The notes below the pieces were generated by a model that was given only the letters and a program-made list of their open reading frames with translations, was not told the origin of the DNA and made no database searches. Of a stretch of DNA of 64,000 nucleotides, positions 3,543 through 12,320 are shown in pieces (position 1 is the first letter of the stretch; each line of letters opens with the position of its first letter). A program made the position numbers and the translations under genes. The DNA is from an uncultured Clostridium sp. (lineage in GTDB: Bacteria; Bacillota; Clostridia; TANB77; CAG-508). The stretch lies in the NCBI GenBank assembly GCA_947651825.1, contig CANTAQ010000001.1:414249-478248 (forward strand), in the 5' to 3' direction.

Positions 3543-5441
3543 CTAAAAAATACGTTCTACGAATCTAACATATTTATCTATCAGATTAGTATTTTTACTT
3601 GAATCAATTATCTCTTTTGACAGTGTAACATCATCTGTAATAATATTATCAACATTTAGTTCTATCATCTTTCTTATATTTTCTTCTGTATTAACTGTCC
3701 AAGCATATAGCTTTTTACCTTTTTTATGTATTCTTTTTACCAATTTTTTTGTTACACTTGTTGCTTCTATACTAAAATTATCTGCTGCTTCTAGTGGTGC
3801 TATATCTCCATATGCTAAACTCATAACATATACTGTTTCTATGTTTTTATCATATTCTTTTACTCTTTCCAACACTTCATACACTTGTGAAGTTATAACA
3901 CATTCATTTCTAAAATCTAATCTATTAATAATATCTATAACGCTCTTTTCAAAATTTATTTCATGACCTGTTGGCTTTAATTCAATATTTAATTTTATAT
4001 CACTTTCTTTTGCAAATTCTATAACTTCTTCTAATAATGGGATTTTTTCATAAATACCTGAAGAAGGTTCTAATGTTGTTGAATCAGAAATCATAAACTC
4101 TTTTTCTTCAAAATAATTAGCTGCATTTAGCTTACTTACTTCTTCATATGTAAGTTCCCATGTATTTGCATTTTCTCCCGTTACTCTTTTAAAATTTTTA
4201 TCGTGGAAAACTATAATTTTTCCATCTTTTGTTTGTTGAACATCAAGTTCAATCCAATCTGCCCCTAATTTTTTAGCACCAACAAATGCACTCATTGTAT
4301 TTTCAGGATAATCAATCGATGCACCTCTATGAGCTGTAACTTCCAATGTTCTTGTTTTATTCGTATTTAAATTATACCAGCCTTTATATATCCCATATGA
4401 AAAAAGAGAAGATATAATAATAATTACACTTATTAAAATTACTAAATATCCTTTTGTTGTGTCTGTCCATAAAGTTTTCTGCTTAGTATTAAGTATTTCA
4501 ATCGATTTCACTTGTTCTCGTTTTTCTTTTTTATGTAAATAGAACAATACACTTATACATGCATAACTAATAGGAGTTGATAATATTTCAAGTGCAACAA
4601 AAGATATTGCCATTAACACCCATATAATAGTTGTAAATATGCTTTTTGCAATAATAATATTTTTAAATATATTACTAAATGTTATAATACCAAAAACTCC
4701 AAATGCAATAAATAATATATATCCAATTGCAATTAAAATTTGTATAGAAATTAGTGCAAATAAATCTTTAAAGTGTTTATCCTTTCCTAATACTGTGCTT
4801 TTTTTCCTTGCCTCTTTAAAACTAACATCTTCTAGCACGAAATAATGAATTGAATAAATCCATCTCATAAATAATGTTGTCAATAGTGCCATCGCAATAT
4901 AAAAAATTATAGACAACATATTATTTTCTTCAATTGTTTTTAGAATAAATTCTGGAATATTTATATTGTGTACAAAACTAGATGCTACTCCTATTTGTAA
5001 AAATGGTATTAAAAATAAAACAAAGAAAGCAAGTGGAAGATTTCTTAACTTCATCATTTTAGTGCATTTGCTAAAAGATAATTTTATGCTATTTATAATA
5101 TTTATTTTCTTTTCTTGATATGATTGATCTAAAATTACAATAACTGTTGTTATATCAAACATATTGTACACTGTCATTATCATTATTAATCCCAGTAATA
5201 ATAGCAAAGTAAATGGATTTAATAAAAATTCTACAATGTTTTCTTTTGTTAGGTATGAATATCCGGTTAGTTTCATTGTAAAGTTGAATATTGTCCAGAA
5301 TAATGGCTTAAAAATTAAAACACTTATTATTTTAAATAGAAATTCAAATCCTAATAAAGTCCATATATTATATTTTAATATCTCTATAACTTTTTTTGTT
5401 TTTTTAAATTGTTCCTCTTTTTTTATTGCTTCTTTAAGCAT
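3543..5441 (-). CDS. multi-pass membrane protein with C-terminal glycerophosphodiester phosphodiesterase (GDPD) domain
   Basis: AHRGAS...ELDVQQTKDG..VFHD GDPD motifs follow ~8 predicted TM helices. The start was chosen at the second ATG, which is preceded by GGAGGG. Confidence 0.75.
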   Translation of the reverse strand: MLKEAIKKEEQFKKTKKVIEILKYNIWTLLGFEFLFKIISVLIFKPLFWTIFNFTMKLTGYSYLTKENIVEFLLNPFTLLLLLGLIMIMTVYNMFDITTVIVILDQSYQEKKINIINSIKLSFSKCTKMMKLRNLPLAFFVLFLIPFLQIGVASSFVHNINIPEFILKTIEENNMLSIIFYIAMALLTTLFMRWIYSIHYFVLEDVSFKEARKKSTVLGKDKHFKDLFALISIQILIAIGYILFIAFGVFGIITFSNIFKNIIIAKSIFTTIIWVLMAISFVALEILSTPISYACISVLFYLHKKEKREQVKSIEILNTKQKTLWTDTTKGYLVILISVIIIISSLFSYGIYKGWYNLNTNKTRTLEVTAHRGASIDYPENTMSAFVGAKKLGADWIELDVQQTKDGKIIVFHDKNFKRVTGENANTWELTYEEVSKLNAANYFEEKEFMISDSTTLEPSSGIYEKIPLLEEVIEFAKESDIKLNIELKPTGHEINFEKSVIDIINRLDFRNECVITSQVYEVLERVKEYDKNIETVYVMSLAYGDIAPLEAADNFSIEATSVTKKLVKRIHKKGKKLYAWTVNTEENIRKMIELNVDNIITDDVTLSKEIIDSSKNTNLIDKYVRFVERIF

Positions 5442-5489
5442 ATGTCCCTCCATATTTTGTTTCTAATATCTTACCAAAAAACTATTACA

Positions 5490-5520
5490 AAAGCAAGTAA
5501 GTTTTGAGCTTACTTGCTTT
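5490..5520. other. stem-loop (12-bp stem) in 5' leader of GDPD gene / possible bidirectional terminator
   Basis: aaagcaagtaag-ttttgagc-ttacttgctttt. Confidence 0.4.
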
Positions 5521-5540
5521 TAATATTAAACCGATTACAT

Positions 5541-5569
5541 ATTGACAAAATAATATTATCCATGTATAA
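5541..5569 (+). promoter_or_regulatory. consensus sigma70-type promoter TTGACA-17-TATAAT; -10 region made of two ATAATATTAT palindromes
   Basis: The hexamers and the 17-bp spacer are exact. The -35 also reads TTGTCA on the minus strand, so this may be a divergent promoter. Confidence 0.45.
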
Positions 5570-5575
5570 TATTAT

Positions 5576-5670
5576 TAGGAAATGGAGAACCACAAACGTG
5601 GTTTGCCTGTTTAGATTTGTTAAAACAAACGCATCCAAATAGTCAAATTACAGATGCGTCTGTTTTTTTA
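5576..5670 (+). ncRNA. candidate small RNA (~95 nt) between perfect promoter and intrinsic terminator
   Basis: No ORF with an RBS. It ends in a 12-bp stem (aacaaacgcatc/gatgcgtctgtt) followed by TTTTTTT. Confidence 0.3.
5624..5670 (+). terminator. intrinsic terminator (also readable on minus strand)
   Basis: GC-containing stem, 17-nt loop, then a U7 tract. Confidence 0.55.
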
Positions 5671-5796
5671 TTGCTTTTTGCTTTTACTCAAAACTATAGT
5701 TAATACTATAATCAAGGTAATTGCTATGATAGTTGTCATTATTAATACATAAAATAATATGTATATGGTTGTAATTAAATATTCTGTTTCTATCAT
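5668..5796 (-). CDS. small hydrophobic peptide (42 aa, single TM) MIETEYLITTIYILFYVLIMTTIIAITLIIVLTIVLSKSKKQ
   Basis: RBS AAAGGAGGTGAGG sits 6 nt before the ATG. Too short to appear in the ORF track. Confidence 0.35.
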   Translation of the reverse strand: MIETEYLITTIYILFYVLIMTTIIAITLIIVLTIVLSKSKKQ

Positions 5797-5856
5797 AAGC
5801 CTCACCTCCTTTTGGAGGCAAACCACATCTGCTTATCTCATTTCCTATGCTAAATA

Positions 5857-6453
5857 CTATAGCACATTTTTGTCTATTTGTCTATATTTGATTTGAATGT
5901 TTTTTAACTTTTTTATTACCTTTTCAAATACTGGTTTACTAAACTCTGCCATTTTTTCACTTGTTGCCTCTTTTAAAGGAATCCACTTTATTCCTTTGCT
6001 TTCGTCTTCTCTAAAACTTAACTTTTCATTCTCATCTGCTTCAAATAAATAAACTACATCATAATGTGTATGTGCTGATATATATTTTCCTTTTTTTATA
6101 TGCCCTTTTACTGGGCATGCTTGGATTGCAAATATATGATTACTTAGTGGTTCCAGTTTTAGACTCGTCTCTTCCCATACTTCTCTCTTTGCTACTTCTA
6201 ACAAGTTACTTTCTCCATCTGCATGTCCTCCCGGATATACCCATGAATTATATATTTTATGATACACCACCAATGTTTTTGTTCTTTCTTTATTTAAGAT
6301 AATTGCAGATGAAGAAAAATGCATGAAGTTATTATTCCTAGTTAAAACATCATCAAATTTATCAATTGCTTCCAACATTACTTTTTTATCATTTTCTTCT
6401 TGTTCATTAAATGGCATATATTTTTCTATTAACTCTCTAAAATTATTCTTCAT
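5857..6453 (-). CDS. NUDIX hydrolase
   Basis: Nudix box GGHADGESNLLEVAKREVWEETS. Confidence 0.85.
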   Translation of the reverse strand: MKNNFRELIEKYMPFNEQEENDKKVMLEAIDKFDDVLTRNNNFMHFSSSAIILNKERTKTLVVYHKIYNSWVYPGGHADGESNLLEVAKREVWEETSLKLEPLSNHIFAIQACPVKGHIKKGKYISAHTHYDVVYLFEADENEKLSFREDESKGIKWIPLKEATSEKMAEFSKPVFEKVIKKLKNIQIKYRQIDKNVL

Positions 6454-6455
6454 TA

Positions 6456-6842
6456 TTACTCCTTAATAAATTCTTTTAATTTTGATAAATCTCCTTTTAG
6501 AAGCTTTACTTCCCATGCAATCAATTCTTCTTCAAATGGTTTATAAATATCATTTAATAAAAATATTTCTCTTCCCTTATAAAATCCAAATGCTAATTCT
6601 GCAAATCCATTTGCTCCTATATAATTTTCCTGATCATTTTTGTTTTCATTTACTATTAAAAGTGCAGCCACATCTTCTTTTTCTATTTCTGAAAAATGTA
6701 GTAATGATGCTTCTTTTTTATCCATATTTACTATAAATTCTCTTGGTACTACTACATTGTAGCCTATCTCTTTCAATTCTTTTTCCAGTTCAAAAAACTT
6801 TGGTATAAATTTTTTAGAACCACATAATACTATCTTTTTCAT
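6456..6842 (-). CDS. hypothetical protein, possibly nucleoside 2-deoxyribosyltransferase-like (Rcl/DNPH1-like)
   Basis: IVLCGSKKF resembles the N-terminal motif of that fold. It is nearly contiguous with the NUDIX gene. Confidence 0.3.
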   Translation of the reverse strand: MKKIVLCGSKKFIPKFFELEKELKEIGYNVVVPREFIVNMDKKEASLLHFSEIEKEDVAALLIVNENKNDQENYIGANGFAELAFGFYKGREIFLLNDIYKPFEEELIAWEVKLLKGDLSKLKEFIKE

Positions 6843-6933
6843 TTTCTCACCCTTACAAAGAACGGGCGATTAAAATCGCCCCATGTATTCTATTTCTTAT
6901 TTAAAATTTTTGCTATATAGCTCCACTTGAATG

Positions 6934-7437
6934 TTATATATTGATTTCGACAATTTTATTTTGTCTCAAGCAACTTTGTACATCTAACAATCTTTGATTA
7001 TCTGATCCCCTGAATTTTATTTCTGGATTTTTTCTTTCTTCTACAAATCTTCCATCTACTAATACATCTATATTTTTTAATGTCTCATTTGTTGCTTCAT
7101 CATTTCTTGCCTCTAGTTGTTCTAATGTATATCCTGTATAGCACCATACATCAAAATTTGGTTTTTCTCTTTTTACATTTTCTATAAATTTGTTTACTTC
7201 TTTAATATTTTGTGGACATAATGGTTCCCCGCCACTTATTGTTATTCCATTTAATATTGAATTTTCTTTTATTCTATTTATAATTTTAGTTTCATCAAAC
7301 TCTTCTCCATAATTATAATCCTGTGCTATTTTATTATGGCAACCTGGACAATTGTGTGGGCAGCCACTTACAAAAAGTACTGCTCTCCAACCTGTCCCAT
7401 TTGATATACTTTCATCATAAAAACCTGCCATCTTCAT
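6934..7437 (-). CDS. nrdG: anaerobic ribonucleoside-triphosphate reductase activating protein
   Basis: Radical-SAM cluster motif CPHNCPGCHN. It sits downstream of nrdD. Confidence 0.9.
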   Translation of the reverse strand: MKMAGFYDESISNGTGWRAVLFVSGCPHNCPGCHNKIAQDYNYGEEFDETKIINRIKENSILNGITISGGEPLCPQNIKEVNKFIENVKREKPNFDVWCYTGYTLEQLEARNDEATNETLKNIDVLVDGRFVEERKNPEIKFRGSDNQRLLDVQSCLRQNKIVEINI

Positions 7438-11114: not shown

Positions 11115-11738
11115 ATGAAGAGAAATTTTGATGTTGATAAATTCGTAAATAAATTATCAACTAACTGTAAAATATGCGAATTTAAAGAATTTCAAGAAGA
11201 TGAAGTTATAACCACTTTCTTAATGAGAAGAAATCAATTTTGTATTTTATTAGAAGGTGAAGCTCAACTCATAACATATGATAAAGATGGAAACAAAAAG
11301 ATTTTATATTATTATAAAAAGAATGATATTTTTGGTGAAGCTCTATTTAAAATATATATGGATAGAGAATTATTTGTTCTCGCAAAAAAGACATGCAAAA
11401 TTTTAATATTTCCTTATGATACAGCAGAAAACTGCACAGAAGATTGTTTATATCATATTGATCTATTAAGAAATTTACCAGACCTTATTTTACACAGTAT
11501 TGCTGAACAAAATTTTAGAATGATTTTATTAACACATAAAAGTGTTAGAGATAAATTACTTTCATATTTTAATGTATTATCAGTTGAAAATGGGAAGAAA
11601 ACTTTTGAATTACCTTTTTCTTTAACAGATTTAGCTGACTATTTAATGATAGAAAGAACTGCTATGATGCGTGAATTAAAAAGGCTTAAAGATGAAAAAA
11701 TTATAAAGAAAATTAATACTCAAATAACATTGCTTTAA
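11115..11738 (+). CDS. Crp/Fnr family transcriptional regulator
   Basis: cNMP-binding-like N-terminus. C-terminal HTH LTDLADYLMIERTAMMRELKRL. Confidence 0.8.
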   Translation: MKRNFDVDKFVNKLSTNCKICEFKEFQEDEVITTFLMRRNQFCILLEGEAQLITYDKDGNKKILYYYKKNDIFGEALFKIYMDRELFVLAKKTCKILIFPYDTAENCTEDCLYHIDLLRNLPDLILHSIAEQNFRMILLTHKSVRDKLLSYFNVLSVENGKKTFELPFSLTDLADYLMIERTAMMRELKRLKDEKIIKKINTQITLL

Positions 11739-11741
11739 AAT

Positions 11742-11780
11742 AATAAATAGGAGTTTTCTAACTCCTATTTATTATTTTAA
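11742..11780. terminator. bidirectional intrinsic terminator
   Basis: aataaataggagtt-ttct-aactcctatttatt flanked by T-runs. Confidence 0.6.
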
Positions 11781-12320
11781 TTTCATTCCATCTTTGAATG
11801 CATTTCCTACTACATCTCCAAGTACTCTATAAGTGTTACTTACCATATCAAATGTAATTATTTCCATTTTATCTACATCTATTTTTCCATTTTCATCTAA
11901 ATATTTCTCATCTATTGAGACATTTACAACATTTCCTATTAGTATTTCATCTTCATATGATTCCACTGTGCATTCTAAAGTTAATGGATATTCTTCAATT
12001 GTTGGTGCATCTATAAATTTTGATTTGGTCACATGTACACCAGCTTTTTTTATCTTGTCTTCATTGTTGCCTGATGCTATTCCAAAGTAATCTGAAATTG
12101 TTACAGTTTCCTTTGTTGCAAAACTTACTGTAAATGCTTTTTTCAACACCAAGTTATCAGTTGTTTTATGTTTTGCTAATGCTATATATATTTGATTATA
12201 ATCAGTCAGTCCTCCCCATGCTGCATTCATGGCATTTGCATTCCCATCTTTATCATAAGTTCCAATTATTAAAACTGGAAGTGGTAAAAAACTTGTTTTC
12301 TTTCCTAAATCTTTTCTCAT
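11772..12320 (-). CDS. flavin reductase-like (FMN-binding split barrel) protein
   Basis: LPLPVLIIGTYDKDGNANAMNAAWGG motif. The start was taken at MRKDL, which is preceded by GGAGG. Confidence 0.7.
   Translation of the reverse strand: MRKDLGKKTSFLPLPVLIIGTYDKDGNANAMNAAWGGLTDYNQIYIALAKHKTTDNLVLKKAFTVSFATKETVTISDYFGIASGNNEDKIKKAGVHVTKSKFIDAPTIEEYPLTLECTVESYEDEILIGNVVNVSIDEKYLDENGKIDVDKMEIITFDMVSNTYRVLGDVVGNAFKDGMKLK

Follow-up and report, generated by a model that had tools for sequence, protein, structure and literature searches.

A convergent small RNA and hydrophobic-peptide cassette from uncultured gut Clostridia as a candidate new type I toxin-antitoxin family

What does a short transcription unit do that has a consensus promoter, a strong terminator and no reading frame of its own? 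The question was raised by positions 5541 to 5670 of a 64,000-nucleotide stretch of DNA from an uncultured Clostridium sp. (GenBank assembly GCA_947651825.1, contig CANTAQ010000001.1, positions 414,249 to 478,248; hereafter the window), where an earlier note made from the sequence alone had described a unit resembling a small RNA (sRNA) gene. We found that a short open reading frame (ORF) converges on this unit, which makes the "orphan sRNA" one of two genes in an antisense cassette. The sRNA and the peptide gene probably form a new type I toxin-antitoxin family, built like par/Fst-RNAII and with a toxin unrelated to Fst. Sequence-level support covers the anatomy of the cassette, its conservation, the complementarities between its RNAs, the coding signature of the peptide gene and an insertion/empty-site polymorphism, while from analogy with known systems we infer the transcripts, toxicity, repression rather than activation and the involvement of RNase III.

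The sRNA promoter lies at 5542–5570 on the plus strand, one base away from where the earlier note had placed it, and consists of a −35 box TTGACA (5542–5547), a 17-nt spacer and a −10 box TATAAT (5565–5570). It scored 12/12 in a promoter scan and was the sole such match within 4500–7000. Transcription is predicted to start at A5577, 7 bases 3' of TATAAT (sequence from A5577: AGGAAATGGAGAACCACAAACGTGGTTTGCC), and to end in the U-run at 5669, so that the promoter and the U-run together delimit a predicted plus-strand sRNA, the candidate antitoxin RNA, of ~93 nt (5577–5669), close to the ~95 nt proposed before. The sRNA is laid out as a 5' hairpin, a linker and a terminator hairpin, and the 94-nt stretch has a fold energy of −25 kcal/mol (z = −2.9). 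The 5' hairpin, GGAGAACCAC-AAAC-GTGGTTTGCC (5584–5607), extends the internal hairpin already recognized in the note, CCAC-AAAC-GTGG at 5590–5601. The intrinsic terminator (5622–5669) pairs the arms AAAACAAACGCATC (5622–5635) and GATGCGTCTGTTTT (5653–5666) through 13 pairs with one A-C mismatch around a 17-nt loop (5636–5652), with a T7 tract at 5663–5669; the unit as described in the note was right save for offsets of one to three bases. The length of this loop is the only reason why the terminator escaped our terminator scan, which was limited to loops of 8 nt. The only ATG frame in the sRNA begins at 5583 and has 10 codons, an AGGA stands too near to this ATG, and in homologues a 1-nt indel (GAGAACC vs GAGAAACC) shifts the frame. 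The sRNA is therefore not coding, as the note had held when it found no ORF preceded by a ribosome-binding site. A riboswitch or attenuator was also ruled out, since no same-strand gene lies downstream.

Running toward the sRNA on the minus strand is a 42-codon ORF, MIETEYLITTIYILFYVLIMTTIIAITLIIVLTIVLSKSKKQ (5668–5796; ATG 5796–5794, stop TAA 5670–5668), contained in a listed 52-aa ORF, whose stop codon overlaps only the last bases of the sRNA U-run. Its product is predicted to be a single-helix hydrophobic membrane peptide and is our candidate toxin: it has a grand average of hydropathy (GRAVY) of 1.45, reaches 2.9 in a 19-aa hydropathy window and contains no P, G or W. The putative toxin promoter (5856–5884, minus strand) has a −35 box TAGACA at 5884..5879, a 17-nt spacer and TGc-TATAGT with the −10 box at 5861..5856; with a score of 10/12 and an extended −10 TG it falls short of the sRNA promoter in strength, and the end of the neighbouring Nudix ORF overlaps it. 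Toxin promoters of homologues likewise combine weak −35 boxes with TGnTATAnT, and we count this asymmetry between a strong sRNA promoter and a weak toxin promoter in favour of a type I system. The predicted toxin mRNA of ~228 nt (about 5848 to 5620) opens with a leader of ~50 nt (5797–5848) that is almost invariant among modules and carries, in order, AGGAAATG (5846..5839), CAGATGTG (5831..5824), GTGGTTTGCC (5826..5817), a sequence UUUGCCUCC (5822..5814) complementary to the Shine-Dalgarno sequence (SD) and hence called the anti-SD, and the SD itself, a strong one, AGGAGGTGA (5810..5802).

Looking for the unit in related genomes, as the earlier note had suggested, gave a clear answer. An exact-pattern scan with the 27-nt 5' motif of the sRNA, GGAAATGGAGAA-N0-2-CCACAAACGTGGTT, over one genome per species found it in at least 119 genome contigs, with promoter and terminator and in varied gene neighbourhoods. 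Among the matches listed, nearly all were metagenome-assembled genomes labelled Clostridia or Clostridium sp. (e.g. CAG:440, CAG:245, CAG:780), with a few Lachnospiraceae or Erysipelotrichaceae, and the sources included human, rabbit, goat, sheep and deer gut; the sRNA promoter (TTGAC[AT], 16–18 nt, TA[TAC]AAT, 5–8 nt before AGG) was present in 106 of 121 homologous copies. Promoter, 5' hairpin and terminator are thus conserved together in more than 100 species and the terminator helix covaries, which bears out the proposal of a stand-alone non-coding sRNA gene. Where enough flanking sequence was available, 78% of copies (89/114) also carried the toxin leader, in the same convergent geometry and across unrelated neighbourhoods. 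Rfam 15 offered no name for the unit: no family reached its gathering score anywhere in the window, and over 5400–5950 only noise appeared at E ≤ 10.

The same pairing was recovered from the opposite direction. In a sample collected by protein search with the 42-aa peptide, independently of the sRNA motif, neighbouring genes again differed (a resolvase, an amidase) and every locus had the convergent sRNA downstream; its promoter matched the consensus, its 5' sequence was the same and its terminator bore a compensatory change (ACGCATC/GATGCGT vs ACACATC/GATGTGT). Across the examined loci, the sRNA motif accompanied 95 of 98 leaders, and in two variants ascertained by the leader (L044 and L059) GACAAATCCAC replaces GGAGAAACCAC with the hairpin kept. 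An alignment of 103 distinct sRNAs (A2) showed compensatory changes at 5 of the 13 terminator pairs (40 cells), beyond 500 of 500 shuffles and all slid controls. The 5' hairpin helix was 95% paired and invariant in this alignment and showed no covariation, because the loci had mostly been collected with that motif. Applied to the window, a covariance model (R1) found one copy, the sRNA (75 bits, E = 6e−14), and BLAST with the unit and the peptide found no second copy there.

The peptide gene behaves as a coding sequence across the family. An ORF of 33–42 aa was present in 80 of 82 non-redundant modules, with a mean GRAVY of ~2.0 and a family-wide content of 0.1% P and 0.4% W. Differences between these ORFs fell on the three codon positions as 6361, 3264 and 6525, and the deficit at the second position, half as frequent as the first and third, is as expected of a hydrophobic coding sequence. 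At least three peptide subfamilies can be told apart (MIETE..LSKSK; MIEAVLLEIIYLLLF..ILSK; MFMVKVILF..WVDKQLHK), and the protein search with the 42-aa query returned four clusters of homologues (P0001–P0004) at 70–73% identity. Pfam and NCBIfam gave nothing meaningful for the window peptide and six relatives, seven variants in all.

We then considered how the two RNAs would meet. The stop codon of the peptide gene abuts the terminator hairpin and UUUGUUUU follows it on the minus strand, which marks the hairpin as a bidirectional terminator serving both genes. With both RNAs ending there, their 3' ~45–50 nt would, for the predicted ends, be perfectly complementary. Co-folding of sRNA and mRNA gave a perfect 3' duplex of 43–50 bp, about 32–51 kcal/mol more stable than the separate RNAs. 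On the toxin strand, the terminator loop of 78 of 103 copies carries a YUNR motif (YUUG) in one and the same alignment column, compared with a background of 14% over all loop registers.

The toxin mRNA is further predicted to close on itself in two ways. Its SD is paired in a leader hairpin, in the window through the helix UUUGCCUCC/GGAGGUGAG (5822..5801); in silico, 4.3 of the 5 SD-core nucleotides were paired in the minimum-energy fold of the leader, compared with 2.3 in controls with the upstream part shuffled. The partners differ by subfamily, CCUCC/GGAGG in one case and CUUUU/GGAGG beside GCCAC..GUGGUGC in the other. Upstream of the anti-SD, the leader segment CAGAUGUG (5831..5824) and the 5' arm of the terminator on the same mRNA are complementary, so that CAGAUGUG and CGCAUCUG could join the leader to the 3' untranslated region (UTR). 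A perfect leader-to-3'-UTR complement of at least 8 nt was found in 74 of 82 modules, with a duplex energy of −15.2 kcal/mol against −6.4 kcal/mol for shuffles, and RNAalifold placed both the SD hairpin and the leader-to-3'-UTR helix in the consensus structure of both subfamilies. In a divergent module (L136/L137), a different terminator, CACCACAU/AUGUGGUG, goes with a correspondingly different leader, GCAGUAUGGGUGCU, and the closure pairing is kept at −19.7 kcal/mol. This 5'-3' closure probably explains the strong sequence conservation of the terminator arms.

A second contact is possible near the 5' ends. The 5' arm of the sRNA, UGGAGAACCACA (5583–5594), is complementary to UGUGGUUU[GC]CUCCA in the leader, a relation that appears in the DNA as the direct repeat GTGGTTT(GC)CTCC (8+5 bp) and lies over the anti-SD arm, not over the SD or the start codon. 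Its perfect 8-nt core, AAACCACA/UGUGGUUU, is present in 63 of 82 modules, with a 7- or 9-nt version in a further 4, and the duplex averages −15.2 kcal/mol, compared with −8.5 kcal/mol for shuffles. The two RNAs are, in addition, alike in sense over ~30 nt at their 5' ends (AGGAAAUG..GUGGUUUGCC), an inverted repeat in the DNA, and the 3' arm of the sRNA hairpin is identical to leader bases 5826..5817. Variants of these two identical segments are partly correlated (L115, L095, L136). Strict co-variation was rejected, as many sRNAs have GUGGUUCGCC while the leader stays GUGGUUUGCC.

Comparison with a related contig (L135) indicated that the whole cassette, with both promoters and both genes, is an insertion of ~370 bp at about 5523–5893 (boundaries approximate). 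That contig has the nrdD-nrdG-128aa-Nudix-GDPD gene order of the window, with a Nudix protein 83% identical, but lacks the cassette; its Nudix stop codon falls within a hairpin, AAAAGCAAGTAAG..CTTACTTGCTTTTG, immediately followed by the GDPD ribosome-binding site. In the window the same hairpin, AAAAGCAAGTAAGCTCAAAACTTACTTGCTTTTG (5488–5522, minus strand; terminator-like, 14 pairs in the scan), stands outside the cassette beyond the sRNA promoter, and it is the original Nudix terminator, pushed ~370 bp away by the cassette. The Nudix protein of the window has 198 aa; its homologues (P0007–P0124) have 181–201 aa, mostly 184–190, and align over ~86–96%. The empty site in L135, the hairpin beyond the sRNA promoter and the different, longer Nudix C-terminus are together the grounds for reading the cassette as an insertion. 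None of the 119 listed loci shares the neighbour genes of the window, and the divergent L136/L137 module adjoins a Nudix gene 89% identical.

Taken as a type I system, the cassette would work as follows. The weak minus-strand promoter would drive the ~228-nt mRNA for the 42-aa peptide, its leader SD locked in a hairpin by the upstream UUUGCCUCC and its segment CAGAUGUG able also to pair with the 5' arm of the mRNA terminator, while the consensus plus-strand promoter would drive the ~93-nt sRNA. The complementary terminator loops would kiss, helped by the YUNR motif on the toxin strand, and this contact would grow into the long 3' duplex. Duplex formation would remove both the protective 3' hairpin of the mRNA and its 5'-3' closure and turn the mRNA into a substrate for RNase III, so that little peptide would be made while the sRNA is present. 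The sRNA arm UGGAGAACCACA may additionally pair with UGUGGUUU..CUCCA in the leader, as happens in those par-type systems where both ends must make contact; the role of this 5' contact is uncertain. Several generic features of type I systems can be recognized from sequence and folding in silico, namely a small hydrophobic peptide on a short mRNA, a complementary antisense RNA and an intrinsic SD lock. Counted toward the same reading are the varied neighbourhoods, the tandem and second copies, the empty site and the sRNA copies without leader.

Several points weigh against this interpretation. The ends of both transcripts are predicted, and the peptide has no homology to any known type I toxin in Pfam or NCBIfam. 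The 5' arm of the sRNA matches the anti-SD arm of the leader and not the SD or start codon, so that alone it would be expected to open the SD hairpin, and the contact has only −5.3 kcal/mol, a weak value, in the divergent L136 module. The sense-identical 5' ends are left unexplained by the model, and most of the loci give no measure of how conserved the 5' hairpin is, having been collected by the same motif. Finally, unlike many classical type I systems on mobile elements, the cassette was absent from the plasmid, phage and viral collections searched: the 371-bp cassette had no BLAST match in plasmid or phage collections, and a pattern scan of IMG/VR with the sRNA motif gave 0 matches.

These points bear differently on the rival explanations. 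That the peptide is an ordinary small membrane protein, a regulated accessory gene tuned by a cis-antisense RNA and not a toxin, agrees with the absence from mobile collections, with the lack of a match to known toxin families and with the many copies in core chromosomal contexts, such as the 24 loci beside a spo0A-like gene; moreover, the toxicity of the peptide is a prediction. We nevertheless regard this as unlikely in view of the hallmarks of type I systems (PMC8594479, PMC7472228) that the cassette carries: translation is predicted to be locked in layers, by the SD hairpin and the 5'-3' closure; the antisense promoter is strong and the sense promoter weak; copies are multiple and patchily distributed; the site is empty in a close relative; and some sRNA copies have lost the peptide gene. 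An activating sRNA, whose GGAG-containing 5' arm would pair with the leader anti-SD arm and free the SD (anti-antisense), would make sense of the 5' contact, for the best 5' duplex covers UGUGGUUU..CUCCA, exactly the SD-sequestering strand of the predicted leader hairpin, and in many copies the sRNA hairpin (GUGGUUCGCC) is weaker than its duplex with the invariant leader. Yet an activator encoded in cis and driven by a constitutive consensus promoter would make the SD lock pointless; the co-fold minimum keeps the 5' hairpins closed and forms the 3' duplex alone; the 5' contact is weak in the L136-type module and only 7–8 bp in the GCCAC subfamilies; and the 3' duplex would still expose the mRNA to decay. 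The chance of an activator thus seems to us quite low.

A trans-acting or protein-binding RNA that neighbours the small ORF only incidentally would account for the 22% of copies without a recognizable toxin leader, for the extreme conservation of the 5' domain and for one copy that follows tRNA-Met without its own promoter. We hold an independent RNA of this kind to be very improbable, however, given that 78% of copies show the linkage in one convergent layout among unrelated neighbour genes, that the terminator is shared and the stop codon abuts it, that what is conserved in the sRNA is exactly what is complementary or identical to conserved stretches of the mRNA, and that several of the "orphans" retain remnants of the peptide 3' end. 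Practically no weight is left for a chance promoter-like site and terminator in AT-rich DNA, or for a leader or attenuator of a downstream gene. Promoter-like hexamers are indeed common in the window (22 found, 19.5 expected in the scan), but only this site reaches 12/12, the unit is conserved in more than 100 species with a covarying helix, the next gene downstream is convergent with none on the same strand, and the conservation data already contradict this view.

The shared 5' sequence may hint at something beyond a plain antisense antitoxin, namely that the sRNA is also a molecular mimic of the toxin leader, an idea we put forward tentatively and consider rather doubtful. The terminator arm of the sRNA is a copy of the leader segment CAGAUGUG, and the sRNA could compete with the leader for the 3'-UTR arm of the mRNA, for the SD strand or for a shared protein or RNase, controlling closure of the mRNA. 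If so, the partly correlated changes in L115, L095 and L136 would reflect selection for sameness. To our knowledge, no decoy logic of this sort has been described for type I systems.

Judged by its sequence, the cassette is built like a Gram-positive type I toxin-antitoxin locus, with par/Fst-RNA II and SprA1/SprA1as as its nearest counterparts. Those two are described as having promoters that converge on one bidirectional terminator, an antisense RNA located to the 3' side and clear of the ORF, complementary terminator loops that kiss with the help of a U-turn motif, an SD concealed in a 5' stem-loop, a helix within the toxin RNA that stabilizes it and a second contact near the 5' ends (PMC7472228, PMC8594479). 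With par/Fst-RNAII the cassette shares the convergent promoters, the bidirectional terminator with complementary loops and YUNR in the toxin-RNA loop (a motif that, according to a published review, not all Fst homologues have), an antisense RNA 3' of the ORF without overlap, a 5' stem-loop sequestering the SD, an intramolecular helix holding the 5' region, a short repeat giving a second complementarity near the 5' ends and a toxin mRNA of about 230 nt. It differs in that its toxin lacks the PXXXG motif, the conserved Trp and the long charged tail, its sRNA is ~93 nt long and not ~40–65 nt, its 5' complementarity falls on the anti-SD arm whereas DRa/DRb repeats reach the SD and start codon, and its RNAs have sense-identical 5' ends. 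Fst gave no Pfam match even at E ≤ 10, and no Rfam antitoxin model matched.

In Staphylococcus aureus SprA1/SprA1as, the cis antisense RNA overlaps only the 3' UTR and its 5' domain pairs with the 5' region of the mRNA (PMC8594479). The cassette likewise combines a 3'-UTR-only overlap with the mRNA of a small hydrophobic peptide and a separate 5' domain, but the 5' domain of SprA1as covers the ribosome-binding site and that of the cassette covers the strand opposite the SD, and the two show no sequence similarity. The Bacillus subtilis systems txpA/RatA, bsrG/SR4, bsrE/SR5 and yonT/SR6 have convergent antisense RNAs that overlap the toxin mRNA at its 3' end and lead to its RNase III-dependent decay, SR4 in addition altering the structure around the SD (PMC6563280, PMC5848175). 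They resemble the cassette in being Gram-positive, convergent and 3'-overlapping with a small hydrophobic toxin; they differ in overlapping the 3' part of the ORF by ~75–120 nt and in residing on prophage-like elements, while the overlap of the cassette stops at the stop codon. No homology to TxpA/RatA or BsrG/SR4 was found with Pfam, NCBIfam or Rfam, and no phage context for the cassette in IMG/VR or a phage collection.

In hok/Sok and AapA1/IsoA1, the toxin mRNA combines a long-distance 5'-3' interaction with SD sequestration (PMC8594479, PMC6733600), and the cassette mRNA is similarly predicted to close its leader on its 3' end and to sequester its SD. There, however, the antisense RNA sits to the 5' side or across the ORF and 3' trimming brings about activation, whereas the sRNA of the cassette would target the 3' partner of the closure. 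The C. difficile systems (CD2517.1-RCd8, CD0956.2-RCd10 and others) share with it the class Clostridia, convergent overlapping genes and small hydrophobic toxins with a lysine tail (PMC6563280), but their toxins have 50–53 aa, they are prophage- or CRISPR-adjacent with longer overlaps, and no sequence similarity was detected. Because the peptide lacks PXXXG and Trp and no Rfam or Pfam model matches, the cassette does not belong to the Fst, TxpA, BsrG, SprA1 or C. difficile families.

The T1TAdb database lists 24 families (PMC8594479), a 2019 review of Clostridia named validated type I systems in this class only from C. difficile (PMC6563280), and the literature searched held no description of the cassette. 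It would thus appear to be a new family of a known kind, which stands out by its breadth over more than 100 gut species, its clean architecture and the odd sense-identical 5' ends. If the reading holds, it would add a type I family spread across more than 100 species of uncultured gut Clostridia, provided with a covariance model and a testable architecture of bidirectional terminator with U-turn loop, SD lock and 5'-3' closure. Gene calling in the metagenome assemblies examined left out the peptide gene, and the cassette, as a small naturally occurring RNA switch, might lend itself to use as a regulatory device.

Individual copies show how the family varies. Twenty-five of 114 copies have no recognizable toxin leader (among them L018, L022, L025, L033, L054, L060 and L082), some keeping remnants of the peptide 3' end, and they look like decayed modules that kept the RNA gene. 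In one of them (L082:5–177), the sRNA copy starts 8 nt after a tRNA-Met gene, lacks its own promoter and may be co-transcribed with the tRNA. Two complete modules stand in tandem within ~600 bp at L096:184–801, and L044, L059 and L046 have second modules belonging to a different peptide subfamily. The 24 loci mentioned above adjoin a Spo0A-like response regulator of ~255 aa (e.g. L041:3118–3955), which points to a single chromosomal site passed on vertically within part of the clade. The contigs with the divergent module come from three samples; L136 and L143 end at the 5' end of the sRNA and L137 ends earlier, at the toxin start codon, which suggests an assembly break at a repeat, i.e. a multi-copy element in that genome. 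A metagenome scan for the leader of this L136 type gave only 3 chance matches, on GC-rich contigs.

Smaller observations concern the sRNA itself. Its linker and the 5' half of the terminator loop are often complementary, e.g. CUCGUUUA/UAAACGGUG in L096 (A2 columns 30–45 vs 65–78, corresponding to 5604–5620 vs 5636–5648 in the window). We do not claim a linker-loop pseudoknot, as cognate pairs were barely better than non-cognate ones (−5.3 vs −4.7 kcal/mol). The sole difference between the cassette and those of the same-species contigs L001–L004 is also in the linker, at 5609 on the plus strand, with G in the window and L002 and T in L001, L003 and L004. The second-best match of the sRNA model in the window, at 11737–11808 on the minus strand (22 bits, E about 0.01), is unrelated and probably another AT-rich terminator hairpin.

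The earlier note had read more into the promoter than homologues bear out. Two copies of the decamer ATAATATTAT are present as it said, at 5550–5559 and 5566–5575 and not within 5547–5572 as given there; the window holds 4 copies where 1.5 are expected. The pair occurs only in this species and the promoter spacer differs in every other species, which rules out the suggested operator as a family feature. The −35 box described as palindromic amounts to TTG-A-CAA with 3-bp arms. Nor does it appear to be shared with the divergent GDPD gene, since the hairpin at 5522..5488, a terminator on the minus strand, intervenes and TTGTCA is not followed on that strand by any usable −10; elsewhere, the same promoter accompanies the sRNA beside unrelated genes.

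The neighbouring genes add some detail. The C-terminal residues of the window Nudix protein (..LKNIQIKYRQIDKNVL) are read from the toxin-promoter region of the cassette (5857–5900, minus strand). The GDPD gene may have a promoter of its own, TTGCTT-17-TGgTAAGAT at about 5496..5468 on the minus strand, which overlaps the displaced hairpin. It probably starts at ATG 5441 (MLKEAIKK, with the ribosome-binding site GGAGGG at 5450–5445, minus strand) rather than at the first ATG, 5453, a start that fits both L135 and the 632-aa gene calls of L001 and L002.

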